Part shown: positions 20,237 through 53,489 of the stretch, in pieces
Layout: each line of letters begins with the position of its first letter
Numbering within the stretch: position 1 is the first letter of the stretch
From: Candidatus Dormiibacterota bacterium
Lineage (GTDB): Bacteria; Chloroflexota; Dormibacteria; Aeolococcales; Aeolococcaceae
DNA: 64,000 nucleotides
Direction of reading: 5' to 3'
Assembly (NCBI GenBank): GCA_963718525.1
Contig: OY970355.1
Coordinates: 224,001-288,000, forward strand
The notes under the pieces: generated by a model
The model's database searches: none
What the model was told of the DNA's origin: nothing
What the model saw: the letters and a program-made list of their open reading frames with translations, nothing else
Made by a program: the position numbers and the translations under genes

Positions 20237-21304
20237 GTGGAGGTGTCGAGCGTCGTCGAACTGCTCTCCGGTTCCGGCAGCATCGACGTTCTGCGCGCCG
20301 TCGGAGTGCTGCTCGACCCCGGAATCGTCGGCCTGGATGCGGATGGACGCGTGCTGCTCGCCAACGAGCCCGCTCGCCGATTGCTCGGACTTGCGTTGGT
20401 CGAAGGCTCCGACTTCGTCGCAGGTGAGGTCGACTACCGTCTCATCCGGTTGCTGGATGCCGCACGCCAGAGCGGGCAGGTCGAGGAGCGTGCGATCACG
20501 CTGCATGACCGGGACTTCAACGCCCGGGCGATCGCACTCAACGGTGAGGTGTCGACCGTCCTGATGGTGCGCGACGAGACCCGCGTGCACCATCTCGAGC
20601 GAGTTCGGCGCGACTTTGTCAGTAACGTCTCGCACGAGTTGCGCACGCCGATCACCGCCGTCCAGCTGATCGCCGAGACGCTGGCCAATGGCGGGCTCGA
20701 GGATCCTGATGCGGCCGCCGATTTCGTGCGACGCATCGGGCAGGAGGCGTCGCACATGGCGCAGATGGTCGAGGAGCTGCTGGAGCTGAGCACCATCGAG
20801 TCGGGGCTGCGCCCGATGGCGAGCGAGCGCGTCGCCATCGCCAGTCTGATGAGCAGCATGGACCGTCTCCGCCCGCTCGCCGAAAGCAAGGGCGTCACAC
20901 TCGAGGTCAGCGTCGCACCAGGGACGCCGGATCTGATCGGCGACGCTTCTCACCTCGGCCAGGTGCTTCGCAACCTCGCTCACAACGCGATCAAATTCAC
21001 GCCGTCCGGCGGCCGGATCACCATCAGCGCCAGCCCAGGGGGTGCCGGCCAGGTGGTGCTGAGCTGCCGCGACACCGGCGTCGGGATCACACCTGCGGAC
21101 CTGCCACGGATCTACGAGCGTTTCTGGAAGGCCGACAGCTCGCGGCAGCGCGACGGCGAGGGTTCAGGGCTGGGGCTCGCCATCGTCCGCCACGTCGTCG
21201 AGGCGCATGGAGGTACGGTGTCGGTCACCTCCGAGCCTCGCCGCGGGACGGAGTTCCAGGTGATCCTTCCGGCGGAGGTCGAGGGTCGGCGCGGGAGCGA
21301 TTGA
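20237..21304 (+). CDS. PhoR-like sensor histidine kinase, no TM segments
   Basis: PAS-like region, RRDFVSNVSHELRTP H-box, NAIKFT, DTGVG, GSGLGLAI. Confidence 0.92.
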   Translation: MEVSSVVELLSGSGSIDVLRAVGVLLDPGIVGLDADGRVLLANEPARRLLGLALVEGSDFVAGEVDYRLIRLLDAARQSGQVEERAITLHDRDFNARAIALNGEVSTVLMVRDETRVHHLERVRRDFVSNVSHELRTPITAVQLIAETLANGGLEDPDAAADFVRRIGQEASHMAQMVEELLELSTIESGLRPMASERVAIASLMSSMDRLRPLAESKGVTLEVSVAPGTPDLIGDASHLGQVLRNLAHNAIKFTPSGGRITISASPGGAGQVVLSCRDTGVGITPADLPRIYERFWKADSSRQRDGEGSGLGLAIVRHVVEAHGGTVSVTSEPRRGTEFQVILPAEVEGRRGSD

Positions 21305-21385
21305 CCGGCTTGCCGTCGCAGAAGGCAGTTGGTTACTATTCGGCGATAGTTACGACGTAGAAAGCTTCCTTGCAGGGGGAGGCCC

Positions 21386-22432
21386 ATGGCGGAACGCGTT
21401 CTCGACATCGATTCGTCGCCCCCGATCGAAGCGCACCCGGCACTTCTCGACCGGCATGCCGGCCTACTCGATGCCGGGCTTCGCAAGTCTGCCCCGCGGA
21501 CACGCGGTCTGCTCCGGCAGATGTCCGCATACCATCTCGGCTGGACTGACGCGCACGGACATCCGGCGAACGACCCGGCTGGAAAGCGCATCCGGCCCGC
21601 GCTCGCCCTTTGGGCCTGCGAATCGCTCGGAGGTGAGGCGGCCTGGGCGCTGCCGGCGGCGGTTGCCGTCGAGCTGATCCACAACTTCACGCTGATCCAC
21701 GACGACATCCAGGACGGCGACCAGCTCCGCCGCCACCGGCCAACGGTCTGGACCATCTGGGGCGCGGAGCAGGGCATCAACGCCGGGGACGGCATGTTCG
21801 CCAATGCTCTGAGCGGCCTGCTTGCCCCGGGACCTCGCCCCGGCCGCCGAATGCGTGCTGCTCATCTGCTGAGCTCGGCGGTGGTGCAGGTGGTCGAAGG
21901 CCAGTGTCTCGACCTTTCGCTCGAAGGACGTGCCGGCGCACCGCAGGCGACCTATCTGCGGCTGGTGACCATGAAGACCGGAGCGCTCCTGGGTGCCGCG
22001 ATGGCTGCAGGAGCCGTGCTGGCGGGCGCACCGCGCGCGGTCGCCCAGCGGTTCGACGCCGCCGGCAGGTTGCTCGGGCTGGCGTTCCAGGTGCGCGACG
22101 ACTGGCTGGGCACATGGGGCGATCCCCAGGTCACCGGCAAAGGGCGGAGCGGGGATCTCCGCCGCCGCAAGCTCACCTACCCTGTGGTGGCGGCCTACGA
22201 GGTGGCCACTCCCGTCCGGCGTCGCGAGCTGCGCCGGCTCTTCCGTGATCGTGAGCCGGGTGGCGAGTTTCGGTTGCGCGCGCTGCTCGACGAGCTGGGC
22301 GGGCCGGCGCTGACCGCGGGGGTCCCCATGGTGCTCGCGCGCGACTCCATCGCCGCGCTGACGGGCTTGCCGGACGAGGCACTCACCGACTTTGCGGATC
22401 TGGCGATCCATGTCGCTGAACGCAACCGTTAA
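21386..22432 (+). CDS. Polyprenyl (FPP/GGPP) diphosphate synthase
   Basis: GKRIRP, HDDIQDGD..RR, GQCLDL, KTGALL, FQVRDD. Confidence 0.93.
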   Translation: MAERVLDIDSSPPIEAHPALLDRHAGLLDAGLRKSAPRTRGLLRQMSAYHLGWTDAHGHPANDPAGKRIRPALALWACESLGGEAAWALPAAVAVELIHNFTLIHDDIQDGDQLRRHRPTVWTIWGAEQGINAGDGMFANALSGLLAPGPRPGRRMRAAHLLSSAVVQVVEGQCLDLSLEGRAGAPQATYLRLVTMKTGALLGAAMAAGAVLAGAPRAVAQRFDAAGRLLGLAFQVRDDWLGTWGDPQVTGKGRSGDLRRRKLTYPVVAAYEVATPVRRRELRRLFRDREPGGEFRLRALLDELGGPALTAGVPMVLARDSIAALTGLPDEALTDFADLAIHVAERNR

Positions 22433-23495
22433 CTCGAGCACTGACGCGAACACCGGATCGCGCACGGCGTCGCGCAAGGACGAGCACCTGCGCATCAACA
22501 TCGACGAGGACGTCGCTGCCAAGGGAGTGGCAACCGGCTTCGATGAGTGGCGGTTCGTGCACCAGGCGCTCCCCGAGATCGACCTCCGCGACGTGGCGCT
22601 CGGCACACACCTGCTCGGCCGGCACGTCGGCGCCCCGCTGCTGATCTCGTGCATGACCGGCGGGACCGATCAGGCCCGAGTCATCAATGAGCGGCTCGCC
22701 GTCGCCGCGCAGGCCCACGGCCTGGCGATGGGCCTCGGGTCCTGCCGTGTCCTCCTCGAACAACCCGAGGTGCTGCCGACGTTCGATGTCCGCGGGCTCG
22801 CACCCGACGTCCCGCTGCTGGCGAATCTCGGTGCCGTGCAGCTCAACCTCGGTGTCGGCATCGATGACTGCCGCCACCTGCTTCGAACCCTGCGCGCAGA
22901 CGCCCTGGTGCTGCACGTGAACCCGCTGCAGGAGGCGCTGCAGCCGTCGGGCAACACCGATTTCTCAGGGCTGCTCGCGCGCATCGCTTCGGTGTGTGCC
23001 GGGCTTGGTGCGCCGGTCATCGTCAAGGAGGTCGGCTGGGGCATCGCCGACGACCTGGTCAAGCGTCTCTTCGAAGCCGGAGTTGCTGCCGTCGACGTCG
23101 CCGGTGCGGGTGGCACGTCGTGGAGCGAGGTCGAGCGTCATCGCATGCGCGACGCGGTACAGGCACGCGTTGCCGCAGCCTTCGCCGGATGGGGTATCCC
23201 GACGGCTGACGCCTTGATCCGGGCACGCAGCGCTGTGCCGACCGGTGTGCTGATTGCGAGTGGCGGTATCCGCAACGGGATTGACATCGCCAAGGCGTTG
23301 ACCTTTGGTGCCGATTCCGTCGGGATCGCCGGGCCGCTCGTGCGTGCAGCGGCGGCCGGTGATGAGGCGCTCGACGAGACCGTCACGGTGATCCTCGAGG
23401 AGCTGCGACTTGCCATGTTCTGCGTGGGTGCGACGCGAGTCGGCGACCTGAGGAGCGACGCGCGTCTCGTGCGCTGCGATGGACGGGCACCCTGA
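22410..23495 (+). CDS. fni: Type 2 isopentenyl-diphosphate isomerase
   Basis: RKDEHL, MTGG, NPLQE, VKEVGWG, AGAGGTSW, SGGIRNG. Confidence 0.95.
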   Translation: MSLNATVNSSTDANTGSRTASRKDEHLRINIDEDVAAKGVATGFDEWRFVHQALPEIDLRDVALGTHLLGRHVGAPLLISCMTGGTDQARVINERLAVAAQAHGLAMGLGSCRVLLEQPEVLPTFDVRGLAPDVPLLANLGAVQLNLGVGIDDCRHLLRTLRADALVLHVNPLQEALQPSGNTDFSGLLARIASVCAGLGAPVIVKEVGWGIADDLVKRLFEAGVAAVDVAGAGGTSWSEVERHRMRDAVQARVAAAFAGWGIPTADALIRARSAVPTGVLIASGGIRNGIDIAKALTFGADSVGIAGPLVRAAAAGDEALDETVTVILEELRLAMFCVGATRVGDLRSDARLVRCDGRAP

Positions 23496-34253: not shown

Positions 34254-35794
34254 CAGCTGTCGCCGCGGTGCTGCGGGCGCATGGTGGGGAACAGCAACAC
34301 GTCGCGGATTGTCGCCGAGTTGGTGAGCACCATCACCAGCCGGTCGACGCCGACACCAAGCCCACCGGCAGGGGGCATGCCCACCTCGATCGCCTCGAGG
34401 AAGTCCTCATCGATGGGCGGGATCTCCGAGTCGCCGGCGGCCCGGAGGCGCGCCTGCTCTTCGAATCGTGCGCGCTGATCGATCGGATCGTTGAGCTCGC
34501 TGAAGGCGTTGGCCATCTCTCGTCCGGCAATGATCAGCTCGAATCGCTCGACGAAACGTGGATCCGCGCGATGACGCCGGGCGAGCGGGCTCACCTCGGC
34601 CGGGTAGTCGAGCACGAAGGTCGGATCCCACAGCTCGGCTTCGACGCGCTGCTCATAGATCTCGAGCAACACCGCGCCGGAACCGAGGTCGGGCGCAACC
34701 TCGACGCCGATCTCCGCGGCAACCTCGTGCATTCGGTCCCACGATGCACGCGCGTCGACGCCGGTATATTCGCGGACGAGGTCGACCATGGTCGCGGCTC
34801 GATACGGTGGCCGAAGATCGAGCGACCGTCCGAACACGGTGCGCAGCAAGGGGTCTTCGCACGGTGCGCTGCCACCCACTTCGGCTTCGGCCACCTGGGG
34901 TCCCGCAGCATTGGCGGCCGCCACGATCAGCGACTCGGTGAGCTCACGCATATCGTCGTAGGTGGCGTACGCCTGATACGCCTCGAGCATGGTGAACTCC
35001 GGGTTGTGCCGGGGTGAGAGTCCTTCGTTGCGAAAGACGCGACCGACCTCGTAGACGCGCGCGTAACCGCCGACGATCAGACGCTTGAGGTGCAGCTCGA
35101 TGGCGATGCGCAGGTACACGTCGGTGTGCAGTGCGTTCCAGTGGGTCTCGAAGGGCAGCGCATGACCGCCGCCAGGGATCGGCTGCAGGATGGGCGTCTC
35201 GACTTCGAGAAAGCCTCGCTGGTCAAGGGTTGCGCGCAGGGCGCGAATGACGCGCGTTCGGGTCGCGAAGTGCCTGCGCTGCGCGGCATTGCTGAGCAGG
35301 TCGAGGTAGCGCTTGCGGTACCGCGTCTCCTGGTCCTGGAGACCGTGAAACTTCTCCGGTGGCGCGTGCAGCGCCTTGACGAGCAAGGTGACCGTGTCGA
35401 CGAGCACGCTCGGTTCACCCCGTCGCGTGCGCGTGATCGGTCCCGTGATCCCGACGATGTCGCCGAGGTCGAGCATCTCCACCATCGCGTGGGCACCGCC
35501 GGGGCGATCAGCGCGAAACCACATCTGCAGGCGGCCGGTCTCGTCCTCGACGTGGGCGAATGCGGCACCGCCCAGGTCGCGCAGCTGCATGATCCGGCCG
35601 GCCACCGCCACAACGGGGCGGTCCGGTGCATCGACATCGGCGTCGGGGTGATCGGACTCATACGCAACCAGCAACCGGCGCGCCTCGTCCATGGTCGCGT
35701 TCGGCGCGAAGTCGACGCCGTAGGCCGGAATCCCGCGCGCGGCGAGCTCATCGACCTTGCGCCGGCGCTCCGCGGAGTGGTCGTCGGATGGCAT
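34253..35794 (-). CDS. lysS: Lysine-tRNA ligase (class II)
   Basis: RYRKRYLDL, LRIAIELHLKRL, FRNEG...HNPEFT, GMPPAGGLGVGVDRL. Confidence 0.97.
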   Translation of the reverse strand: MPSDDHSAERRRKVDELAARGIPAYGVDFAPNATMDEARRLLVAYESDHPDADVDAPDRPVVAVAGRIMQLRDLGGAAFAHVEDETGRLQMWFRADRPGGAHAMVEMLDLGDIVGITGPITRTRRGEPSVLVDTVTLLVKALHAPPEKFHGLQDQETRYRKRYLDLLSNAAQRRHFATRTRVIRALRATLDQRGFLEVETPILQPIPGGGHALPFETHWNALHTDVYLRIAIELHLKRLIVGGYARVYEVGRVFRNEGLSPRHNPEFTMLEAYQAYATYDDMRELTESLIVAAANAAGPQVAEAEVGGSAPCEDPLLRTVFGRSLDLRPPYRAATMVDLVREYTGVDARASWDRMHEVAAEIGVEVAPDLGSGAVLLEIYEQRVEAELWDPTFVLDYPAEVSPLARRHRADPRFVERFELIIAGREMANAFSELNDPIDQRARFEEQARLRAAGDSEIPPIDEDFLEAIEVGMPPAGGLGVGVDRLVMVLTNSATIRDVLLFPTMRPQHRGDS

Positions 35795-35851
35795 GCGGCC
35801 TATCTTCCCCGCCGGGGCGCGGTGCGTGCGCTTGACGCGCCCCGCACGACG

Positions 35852-36313
35852 CTAGTTGATCTTGACGATCTTGATCTGTCGCGATCCACCGGGGCTGACC
35901 ACGTCGACCGTGTCGCCCACGCTGTGACCGAGCAACGCCTTGCCGACCGGCAACTCCATCGAGATCCGCCCCTCGGCAACATCAACCTCCGCGGGGCCGA
36001 CAATCGTGAGCGTCTGTTTCCCGAAGTCATCCTTCACGTCGACGGTGGTGCCGACGCTCACGATGCCGCTCTCACTGCCCTCTTCGATGATCACGGCATT
36101 GCGGAGCATGTTCTCAATCACGAGGATGCGACCCTCGAGCATTCCCTGCTCGTTCTTCGCCTCGTCGTATTCGGCATTCTCCGAGATATCGCCGAAGTCC
36201 TTGGCGTACTTGATGCGCTCGGCCACCTCGGAGCGACGAACCGTGCGCAATTCCTCCAATTCGTGTTCAAGCTTCACGAGACCGTCTCGCGTCAGCAATA
36301 CAGGTTTGTCCAT
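35852..36313 (-). CDS. greA: Transcription elongation factor GreA
   Basis: GDISENAEYDEAK, IVGPAE, PVGKALLG. Confidence 0.96.
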   Translation of the reverse strand: MDKPVLLTRDGLVKLEHELEELRTVRRSEVAERIKYAKDFGDISENAEYDEAKNEQGMLEGRILVIENMLRNAVIIEEGSESGIVSVGTTVDVKDDFGKQTLTIVGPAEVDVAEGRISMELPVGKALLGHSVGDTVDVVSPGGSRQIKIVKIN

Positions 36314-36425
36314 TCAATTCCCTGGGTAATGCAAAGTTGGCGGAGTATTCGGCGGCCTCCGCTCTGCGGAGCCCGGAGTATAGGCGAGCCACTTACAACG
36401 CTGCGTAACAACTTGTCGTTATTCC

Positions 36426-36454
36426 TTGACGGAATTGGCTCTGGTTCATATGAT
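36426..36454 (+). promoter_or_regulatory. Near-consensus sigma70/sigmaA promoter with no downstream sense ORF
   Basis: TTGACG (36426-31), 17-bp spacer, TATGAT (36449-54). Confidence 0.7.
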
Positions 36455-36459
36455 CCGCA

Positions 36460-36538
36460 GCGAGGTCGCGGCGGGACCTCTTTTACTGCCCCCCCTCTCG
36501 GGGCGTCTCTGGTTTCCAGAGGCGCCCTTCTTCTTTTC
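36460..36538 (+). ncRNA. Candidate ~80-nt small RNA with C-rich single-stranded segment
   Basis: Promoter directly upstream; 5' hairpin GAGGTC/GACCTC; TTTTACTGCCCCCCCTCTC; terminal hairpin plus T-rich tail. Confidence 0.55.
36501..36538 (+). terminator. Intrinsic terminator
   Basis: GGGCGTCTCTGG-TTT-CCAGAGGCGCCC followed by TTCTTCTTTT. Confidence 0.75.
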
Positions 36539-36542
36539 CCGT

Positions 36543-37583
36543 CTAACCCTCGCCGCTGACGAACAGGGGGCGGAACCAACCTTCGGGATGCGGTCCCGCC
36601 GCAAGCGCGCGGCCGAGCAGCGCGTCGAGCAACTCCCGCGTGTCCATCGTCTGGACCTCGGCGCGAAGCCGCGCGGCCCCCGCGCATCCGCGGATCGTCC
36701 AGGCGACATATTTGCGGCCGATGCGCAGCGCACGCGGTTCGCCGTGGTACGCGCAGAGCATGTCGAGGTGGCGTCGAGCCAGCGCGACGCGTTCGGGAAA
36801 CTCGAGGTCGGGCAGGATCGTGCCGGTCGCGAGTCGATGGACCGCCTGGCGGACGAACCAGAAGTTGCCGAGCATGCCGCGAGCGATCACCACCCCGTCG
36901 ACCATTCCCAACTCGATGCGCCGGGCAAGGGTGTCCACGTCCTCGACATCACCGCTGCCGAACACAGGGACGCCCACCGCCTCCTTCACCCGCGCGATCT
37001 GCGCCCAGTCGGCTGCTCCCTCGTACTTCTGACAGCGGGTCCGGCCGTGCACGGTCACCGCAGCGGCCCCAACGTCCTCGAGCGCGCGGGCGAGCTCGGG
37101 GGCATTGATCGTGGACGCGTCCCAGCCTATGCGCATCTTCACGGTGACGGGGACCGGGACCGCCTCCACCATCGCCGCGACCACCCTCGAGGTCGCCCGC
37201 ACGTCGCGGGCGAGGGCGGCGCCGCTTCCCCGGCTCACCACCTTCGGGACCGGGCACCCGAGGTTGATGTCGACGAGCACCGCCCCGCGCTCGACGCAGA
37301 CCTGAGCCGCATCCGCCATCACGGCGGGATCGGATCCGACCAGCTGGGCTGCCACCGGCGAGACCCCGGCGGGGAAGTCGAGGAGATGGAGGGCTGCCTC
37401 GGTACTTCGAACCACCGCCTCGGCGGCGACCATCTCCGTGGAAACCAGCCCCGCGCCGAACTCGCGGCACAACTCCCGGCACGGGGCGTCGGTGATCCCC
37501 ACCATCGGCGCCACCAGGATCGGTGACGAGAGTTCGAGGCCGCCGATCTCGAGGGGACGGAGCGCAGTCGCAGCGAGAGCCAT
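36543..37583 (-). CDS. dusB: tRNA-dihydrouridine synthase DusB-like
   Basis: APMVGITD, DINLGCP, VTVKMRIGW, VHGRTR. Confidence 0.9.
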   Translation of the reverse strand: MALAATALRPLEIGGLELSSPILVAPMVGITDAPCRELCREFGAGLVSTEMVAAEAVVRSTEAALHLLDFPAGVSPVAAQLVGSDPAVMADAAQVCVERGAVLVDINLGCPVPKVVSRGSGAALARDVRATSRVVAAMVEAVPVPVTVKMRIGWDASTINAPELARALEDVGAAAVTVHGRTRCQKYEGAADWAQIARVKEAVGVPVFGSGDVEDVDTLARRIELGMVDGVVIARGMLGNFWFVRQAVHRLATGTILPDLEFPERVALARRHLDMLCAYHGEPRALRIGRKYVAWTIRGCAGAARLRAEVQTMDTRELLDALLGRALAAGPHPEGWFRPLFVSGEG

Positions 37584-53062: not shown

Positions 53063-53355
53063 TGCGCGGATTTCGCCGCGCCCAGCTGCGCGGCAGCGAT
53101 GAGCTCTTCCGCTCCGCCGAGCCCGAGCAGCTCGACGCCCCGCTGTCGCCCGCCGAGAACAACGACGCCGTCCACCCCGTCCCGTCGGCCCCCGCCCACC
53201 ACATGCGCTCGGTCCGGTTGACGGACGACGAGCTGCGGATCCTCTCGGAAGCGGTTCAGCACCTCAAATTCCCCGCCAAGGCGCCGACGCGCCCTTCGGT
53301 GGACGACTTCGAGAAGCTGGAGGTCCTCCGCCAGAAACTGCTCGACGCGCTGTGA
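53062..53355 (+). CDS. Small hypothetical protein coupled to the ParA-like gene
   Basis: TGATG overlap with the ParA stop; RRAQLRGSDELFR N-terminus resembles partners of orphan ParA proteins. Confidence 0.7.
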   Translation: MRGFRRAQLRGSDELFRSAEPEQLDAPLSPAENNDAVHPVPSAPAHHMRSVRLTDDELRILSEAVQHLKFPAKAPTRPSVDDFEKLEVLRQKLLDAL

Positions 53356-53357
53356 GG

Positions 53358-53489
53358 GTCGGAGGGGACGGCATCGACTGCGGCGGGCCGTCTCGCAGCC
53401 GGGGCTACCCCCCCCGGCGAGAGCGAGGGGCGGAACGGCGAAGGCGTTCCGACCCCGTGCCCGCCGCAGTCGATGCCGTCCCCTCCGAC
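53358..53489. repeat. 31-bp perfect inverted repeat enclosing two internal hairpins
   Basis: GTCGGAGGGGACGGCATCGACTGCGGCGGGC (53358-53388) is the exact reverse complement of 53459-53489. Confidence 0.9.

Follow-up and report, generated by a model that had tools for sequence, protein, structure and literature searches.

A probable small RNA gene with an invariant C-rich tract between dusB and greA, conserved in Candidatus Dormibacterota

The intergenic region between greA and dusB in the window (the whole 64,000-nucleotide stretch of DNA analysed in this study) contains a short element on the strand opposite to both genes which, judging from comparative sequence analysis, is very probably a real, conserved and independently transcribed small RNA (sRNA) gene. 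The arrangement of its parts on this one strand is under stronger constraint than the neighbouring essential protein gene, greA. The element was recovered from 78 of 80 related loci with the positions of promoter and terminator kept and with compensatory changes in the 5' hairpin, which strongly supports the proposal of an unannotated, self-contained sRNA gene made earlier from the letters of the window. The full explanation preferred here, an sRNA gene whose C/U tract acts in trans by antisense pairing, is given an even chance of being correct.

The features of the element and of its surroundings are collected in Table 1. The sequence-only reading had claimed a promoter, a hairpin, a C-tract and a terminator at these places on the + strand, and all four were found there. 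It had also called the promoter the best in the window, and indeed this is the sole 10-of-12 site within the 64 kb by the scanner's rule on both strands; four sites pass that rule in total, the other three scoring 9. The putative promoter was assigned from its match to the consensus together with its conservation. The predicted transcript was taken to start 7 nt past the -10 box and to stop at the U-tract, and the covariance model match to the window copy covers 36461-36536 with a score of 88.1 bits.

Table 1. Features of the putative sRNA element and its flanking genes in the window
Feature	Position	Strand	Sequence or remark
Whole element, promoter to U-tail	36426-36537	+	between greA and dusB
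Motif upstream of the sRNA -35 box	36405-36411	+	GTAACAA, motif GT[AG]AC[AG]; conserved in homologues
Putative sigma-70-type promoter, -35 box	36426-36431	+	TTGACG; consensus match
Putative sigma-70-type promoter, -10 box	36449-36454	+	TATGAT; consensus match, 17-nt spacer
Predicted sRNA transcript	36461-36537	+	about 77 nt; both ends predicted
5' stem-loop	36462-36480	+	GAGGUC / GACCUC, 6 pairs; G-rich loop of 7 nt
Pyrimidine-rich linker	36481-36499	+	UUUUACUG-CCCCCCC-UCUC
C7 run	36489-36495	+
UCUC	36496-36499	+
Proposed seed, invariant	G36488 to C36499	+	G-C7-UCUC; alignment columns
Terminator hairpin	36500-36528	+	13-bp GC-rich stem GGGGCGUCUCUGG / CCAGAGGCGCCCU; 3-nt loop
U-rich tail	36529-36537	+	UCUUCUUUU
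greA, divergent neighbour	35852-36313	-	NCBIfam NF001263 GreA, 178.9 bits
dusB, convergent neighbour	36543-37583	-	NCBIfam TIGR00737 DusB, 346.8 bits
greA -10-like box	36377-36382	-	TATACT; back to back with the sRNA promoter
Sequence around the greA -10-like box	36375-36384	-	CCTATACTCC

The predicted structure is stable for its composition. An 81-nt RNA folds at -39 kcal/mol (z = -3.58), and none of 200 shuffled sequences was equally stable. Three terminator-like sites were found in 35500-37500, all of them on the + strand, compared with 1.1 +/- 1.0 in shuffled sequences. The terminator stem is followed on the + strand by TCTTCTTTTC; read on the - strand it is followed by the G-rich GAGAGGGGGGG and by no T-run, and no - strand terminator was detected between dusB and greA in the window.

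The window belongs to a Candidatus Dormibacterota genome. The comparison set consisted of the best 80 of 169 GreA relatives, retrieved with the GreA of the window from species-representative genomes. Metagenome-assembled genomes account for 79 of the 80 loci, nearly all titled Candidatus Dormibacterota or Dormibacteria and a few bearing other phylum names; GreA in these 79 is 70-99% identical, and in the Brevibacillus locus (L079) it is 60% identical. The taxonomic labels of some loci (L015, L033, L035, L043, L056, L060, L065, L073 and L075), titled Saccharimonadales, Acidiferrales, Actinomycetes, Chloroflexi or Chloroflexia, look inconsistent: their GreA proteins are 70-98% identical to those of Dormibacterota, and they carry the same sRNA in the same synteny. 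Copies of the element were detected by blastn, by a motif search and by a covariance model, and all three agreed over the 80 loci. Homologue counts given below out of 79 comprise the window copy and the 78 element-bearing loci, and pairwise identities were taken over 75 sequences (2775 pairs).

The placement between dusB and greA, first noted in the window, held in 78 of the 80 GreA loci fetched, with one copy in each. The two misses are a locus cut short by the end of its contig 122 nt upstream of greA (L008) and the Brevibacillus locus. The element always lies on the strand opposite to greA, 140-200 nt upstream of the greA start (1167 nt in L063), and the gene order is coaX-dusB-[element]-greA-lysS, with dusB present in 78, lysS in 80 and coaX in 70 of the 80 loci. 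In the window the gap between greA and dusB measures 229 nt and the dusB stop codon is only 5 nt from the U-tail of the sRNA; the distance between dusB and the element ranges from these 5 nt to about 330-640 nt in one clade (L044-L062). The predicted sRNA transcript overlaps no coding sequence, and the only RNA that it would overlap is a hypothetical readthrough from dusB to greA. In members of the L044-L062 clade (e.g., L051 and L059), three more hairpins lie between the sRNA terminator and dusB; differences between loci preserve their pairs and a T-run is found on neither side, and they could represent another structured RNA or a repeat element.

Towards greA, the TATACT box is probably the -10 box of the greA promoter. 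Read on the sRNA-sense strand, GAGTATA occurs at this position in all 79 sequences, and no -35 box at canonical spacing was seen by eye in the window. The predicted 5' leader of greA carries a run of C6-C7 about 60 nt upstream of the gene in four loci (L060, L065, L072 and L075), which appears as a G-run next to GAGTATA on the sRNA-sense strand. As this run has the same polarity as the C-tract of the sRNA, it is not a target of the latter; it could be a site for a ligand shared with the sRNA.

A 10-of-12 promoter was found at the same place in 66 of the 79 homologues, and one more was seen on inspection in L058, outside the distance rule. The promoter spacer varies in sequence and measures 17 nt in 62 sequences, 18 nt in 13 and 16 nt in 4. 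Further upstream, GT[AG]AC[AG] is present at a fixed distance in 69 of 79 sequences: in 54 of these, 15-16 nt separate the 6-mer from the -35 box, and in the other 15 the separation is 22-23 nt. Because the spacing between the motif and the greA -10 box is variable, the motif seems to belong to the sRNA promoter, and it possibly represents a regulator-binding site or an upstream promoter element. One locus (L001, about 2900-2950) has an assembly gap of NN in place of the -35 region and the upstream motif.

The strongest conservation was observed in the 3' half of the RNA. The 40-nt core shows 94.7% pairwise identity (2775 pairs), compared with 87.9% for codon positions 1 and 2 of greA and 62.2% for position 3 in the same comparison; the 5' part of the sRNA stands at 41.2% (2775 pairs). 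From the start of the C-run to the end of the terminator stem, 31 of about 39 alignment columns are invariant among the 79 sequences. The C7-UCUC motif is intact in the window and in 76 loci, and C6 replaces C7 in the other two (L058 and L061). Loss of the promoter or of the C-tract in relatives, which the sequence-only reading had named as evidence against an sRNA gene, is thus not what the homologues show, given the 66 of 79 promoters and the near-universal C7-UCUC. Conservation of the core above the level of the non-synonymous positions in greA implies a partner which is likewise kept across the phylum.

The 5' hairpin shows the opposite behaviour in sequence, differing strongly between clades while its pairing is kept. 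In the model-fitted alignment, changes on both sides were observed in six of six pairs, 82% of the cells are paired, and 125 cells carry double changes, compared with 39.3 in shuffled alignments, none of 500 of which reached this value; slid controls were far lower. These counts lean towards structure, since the alignment was fitted to the covariance model; a MAFFT alignment had left this hairpin unaligned, and RNAalifold applied to it saw the terminator only. Folded alone, the 5' segment forms at least four pairs in 71 of 79 sequences with a modest median z of only -1.08, and, given the predicted start sites, 8 of 79, all from one clade, show little of the hairpin or lack it. The predicted length of the homologues is 63-97 nt, with a median of 76.

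In the terminator, 99.9% of stem cells are paired and 10 of the 13 pairs never vary. The remaining three vary on one side only, along a UA/UG/CG path, and no pair changed on both sides was found among the homologues, so the case for the terminator structure rests on thermodynamics and one-sided changes. Its loop differs in sequence among the homologues and is 3 to 6 nt long, and a T-rich tail, with at least five T in the first 9 nt past the stem, follows in 78 of 79. The sequence-only reading had described the C-tract between the two hairpins as unpaired. This stood by and large for the homologues, where the predicted unpaired probability has a median of 0.73 over the 79 sequences and exceeds 0.7 in 43, and did not stand for the window copy, where the predicted mean of 0.39 indicates a tract that is not fully single-stranded because the G-rich loop of the 5' hairpin competes for it. 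The same loop is predicted to sequester the C-tract partly in the window's own clade, and values below 0.4 were obtained for 14 of 79 sequences. A second run of at least four C lies directly upstream of the C-tract in 14 of 79.

Two other kinds of gene or element were considered and excluded. A peptide-coding gene had been discounted already in the sequence-only reading, rightly: no ATG, GTG or TTG lies within 36461-36537, no reading frame is conserved among the 79 sequences, 43 of which are without any start codon, and the loop lengths differ by non-multiples of three. A dispersed repeat was also excluded, since each locus has a single copy and the window has no other. When the window and the 80 loci (549,322 bases) were scanned with covariance model R1, no second full copy was found, and the side matches amounted to the stem, palindromic and so matched also in reverse (23.3 bits), and two weak hits (E = 0.34-0.75); one full match per source means that the element is not a repeat family. 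Elsewhere in the window, two arms of about 30 bp (53359-53388 and 53460-53489), about 70 nt apart, form a perfect inverted repeat with a C8 run at its centre (53409-53416). One ORF ends near 53355, just before the repeat, and another, at 53473, begins within it; no promoter-like or terminator-like site was called in this region.

The explanation favoured here may be set out as follows. Transcription from a housekeeping-type promoter would begin near 36461 and yield about 77 nt of RNA, and the 5' stem-loop, with its drifting sequence and kept pairing, may serve to protect the 5' end. The mostly single-stranded pyrimidine linker with G-C7-UCUC would act as the seed, and the GC-rich intrinsic terminator would end the RNA. 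The C/U tract would pair in trans with G-rich stretches of several mRNAs, such as Shine-Dalgarno regions of the GAGGGGG type, and this pairing might block the initiation of translation or alter mRNA decay. Pairs of G and C could make a chaperone unnecessary, as the account in PMC6486639 reports for the 6C sRNA. That pairing of the C-tract with G-rich mRNA sites is the mode of action is a tentative claim, held slightly short of even. A model with a seed only is insufficient because 10 of the 13 terminator pairs never vary, and the fixed sequence of this stem hints at an additional constraint, which could come from a protein partner or from extended pairing.

The search for targets returned many candidate sites and singled out none of them. 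The sequence-only reading had pointed to the ribosome-binding site AGGGGGAGG (21374-21382), which lies 3 nt ahead of the start codon (ATG at 21386) of a polyprenyl synthetase gene. This site turned out to be unremarkable: its duplex energy is -18.4 kcal/mol, 2.2% of 2844 random 45-nt windows pair at least as strongly, and it ranks outside the 40 best sites of the window. The surrounding isoprenoid cluster (20237-23495) comprises, in this order, a histidine kinase (HisKA/HATPase_c), the polyprenyl synthetase (PF00348) and a gene resembling FMN-dependent dehydrogenases. When the window, which is 67% GC, was scanned on both strands for duplexes with the linker, many G-rich sites scored -20 to -24.6 kcal/mol, and they showed no pattern at start codons; 12 G-runs of at least 6 nt are present in the window. 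At the starts of greA, lysS, dusB and coaX, no conserved complementarity was found in 68-78 loci each (median percentiles 0.57-0.84), and no seed-complementary 7-mer or G-rich site recurs at an orthologous place in the 6-kb loci.

Other explanations of the conserved element have to be weighed against trans pairing. It is very improbable that there is no RNA gene at all, the region being instead a conserved DNA site in the form of an imperfect palindrome to which a protein binds, or a dusB terminator beside a chance promoter. In favour of this reading, the stem is near-palindromic and gives a weak score of 23.3 bits on the opposite strand; the promoter boxes, the compensated 5' hairpin, the C-tract and the T-run are nevertheless all kept on a single strand, the single-stranded tract next to the stem is invariant although the loop is free to vary, and the - strand has no T-run. 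A hairpin acting solely as the terminator of dusB, an option already raised in the sequence-only reading, was excluded because that strand lacks a T-run and because the core persists where dusB lies hundreds of nt away. Rather improbable, too, is an action in cis on the dusB-greA unit, in which convergent transcription or the hairpin itself stops, processes or insulates dusB before greA. The geometry suits such an action, the transcript being perfectly antisense to any RNA reading through from dusB to greA, and so do the preserved order dusB-[element]-greA-lysS (dusB in 78 and lysS in 80 of 80 loci), the dusB stop codon 5 nt from the U-tail, and the fact that no - strand terminator was detected from dusB to greA. 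Against it, a cis-antisense RNA needs no conservation of sequence, yet the core is more conserved than codon positions 1 and 2 of greA; the core is unchanged in the L044-L062 clade, where dusB ends about 330-640 nt away, and downstream of the element an invariant -10-like box serves greA separately, as far as its sequence and place suggest.

A different possibility is that the RNA binds or titrates a protein, with C7-UCUC and the hairpin of fixed sequence forming a recognition site and having no part in mRNA pairing. Proteins that prefer C-rich single strands include Rho and those with KH or cold-shock domains, and these would be candidate partners. This is considered unlikely, and it has several points in its favour: the invariance runs through the terminator stem, which neither ordinary terminators nor pure seed models require; no mRNA target emerged from the window, the 6-kb loci or the four neighbouring genes; and the constant position beside greA, a transcription factor gene, is suggestive, if only that. 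For titration, the presence of one binding module per RNA is a difficulty, as many sites are the usual pattern in known titrating RNAs. The additional C-runs of 14 of 79 sequences fit protein-binding and mRNA-pairing models alike.

It is quite unlikely that the 40-nt module is more than a seed and a terminator and serves as the recognition element of a ribonucleoprotein or decoy with a housekeeping role throughout the phylum, for instance an RNA titrating a C-binding transcription or translation factor such as Rho. The RNA would then be a global regulator of the rank of 6S or CsrB-type RNAs with a new architecture, and its fixed position next to greA would be explained. Should the C-tract be a seed, as preferred here, chaperone-independent pairing driven by G and C would not be confined to Actinobacteria and Firmicutes. 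Permafrost, peat and desert soils are rich in Dormibacterota, and the element would be a first candidate riboregulator for this phylum. The promoter, the predicted ends, covariance model R1 and the 79 sequences are enough for searches of metatranscriptomes and for seeding an Rfam family.

The element appears to fall outside the families described so far. At the gathering score, Rfam returned three tRNAs and nothing else over the whole window, in agreement with the earlier description of the gene as unannotated; a search of the 401-nt region 36250-36650 up to E = 10 gave five noise-level matches, and 20 homologous loci gave none. A survey of titles and abstracts on sRNAs, non-coding RNAs or transcriptomes of Dormibacterota found nothing relevant to regulatory RNAs, and none of the matches listed for intergenic, divergent sRNAs linked to greA was relevant. 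A parallel by position is GraL of E. coli, an sRNA produced out of the leader of greA and encoded on the same strand as that gene. Both RNAs adjoin greA; the element differs in being on the opposite strand, in having its own promoter and in showing no overlap with the predicted greA transcript.

In layout, the cyanobacterial Yfr1 offers a parallel, being a phylum-wide RNA of about 60 nt in which a 5' hairpin and a terminator flank an unpaired, ultraconserved motif, although its motif and its lineage differ from those of the element. The best sub-threshold Rfam alignments were to CcsR1 (RF02791; 13.2 bits against a gathering score of 65.3, E = 1.4) and mmgR / suhB (RF00519; 11.7 bits against 41, E = 9.7), both at noise level in the 401-nt search. 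Like the element, CcsR1 and mmgR have a C/U-rich motif of anti-Shine-Dalgarno type and a terminator hairpin, and in mmgR the motif likewise sits between the 5' hairpin and the terminator; both, however, belong to the Alphaproteobacteria, another phylum than that of the element.

Several C-rich regions are carried by RoxS/RsaE of the Firmicutes, whereas the element usually has one. These C-rich regions are described as pairing with Shine-Dalgarno sequences in the accounts consulted (PMC5419742, PMC10433868). As presented in those accounts, RoxS/RsaE resembles the element in being an independent sRNA with a C-rich pairing region, with the difference that the element gave no Rfam match to it. The actinobacterial 6C sRNA is reported to pair with G-rich mRNA sites through C-runs in single-stranded regions, with no chaperone (PMC6486639). 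Going by that account, 6C (also known as B11) shares with the element a short, high-GC sequence, conservation over a whole phylum and single-stranded C-runs. The two differ in where these runs lie, since those of 6C are described there as lying in hairpin loops (PMC6486639) and the single C7 of the element is in the linker between two hairpins, the loops of which are G-rich (5' hairpin) or U-rich (terminator). The genomic contexts differ as well, and the 6C covariance model gave no match at the gathering score in the window, none up to E = 10 in 36250-36650, and none in the 20 homologous loci. The element is therefore rated here as a new sRNA family, belonging to none of 6C, RoxS/RsaE, CcsR, mmgR or Yfr1. 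By analogy, its action may be likened to that of the sRNAs with C-rich seeds (6C, RoxS/RsaE and CcsR), and its layout to that of mmgR.
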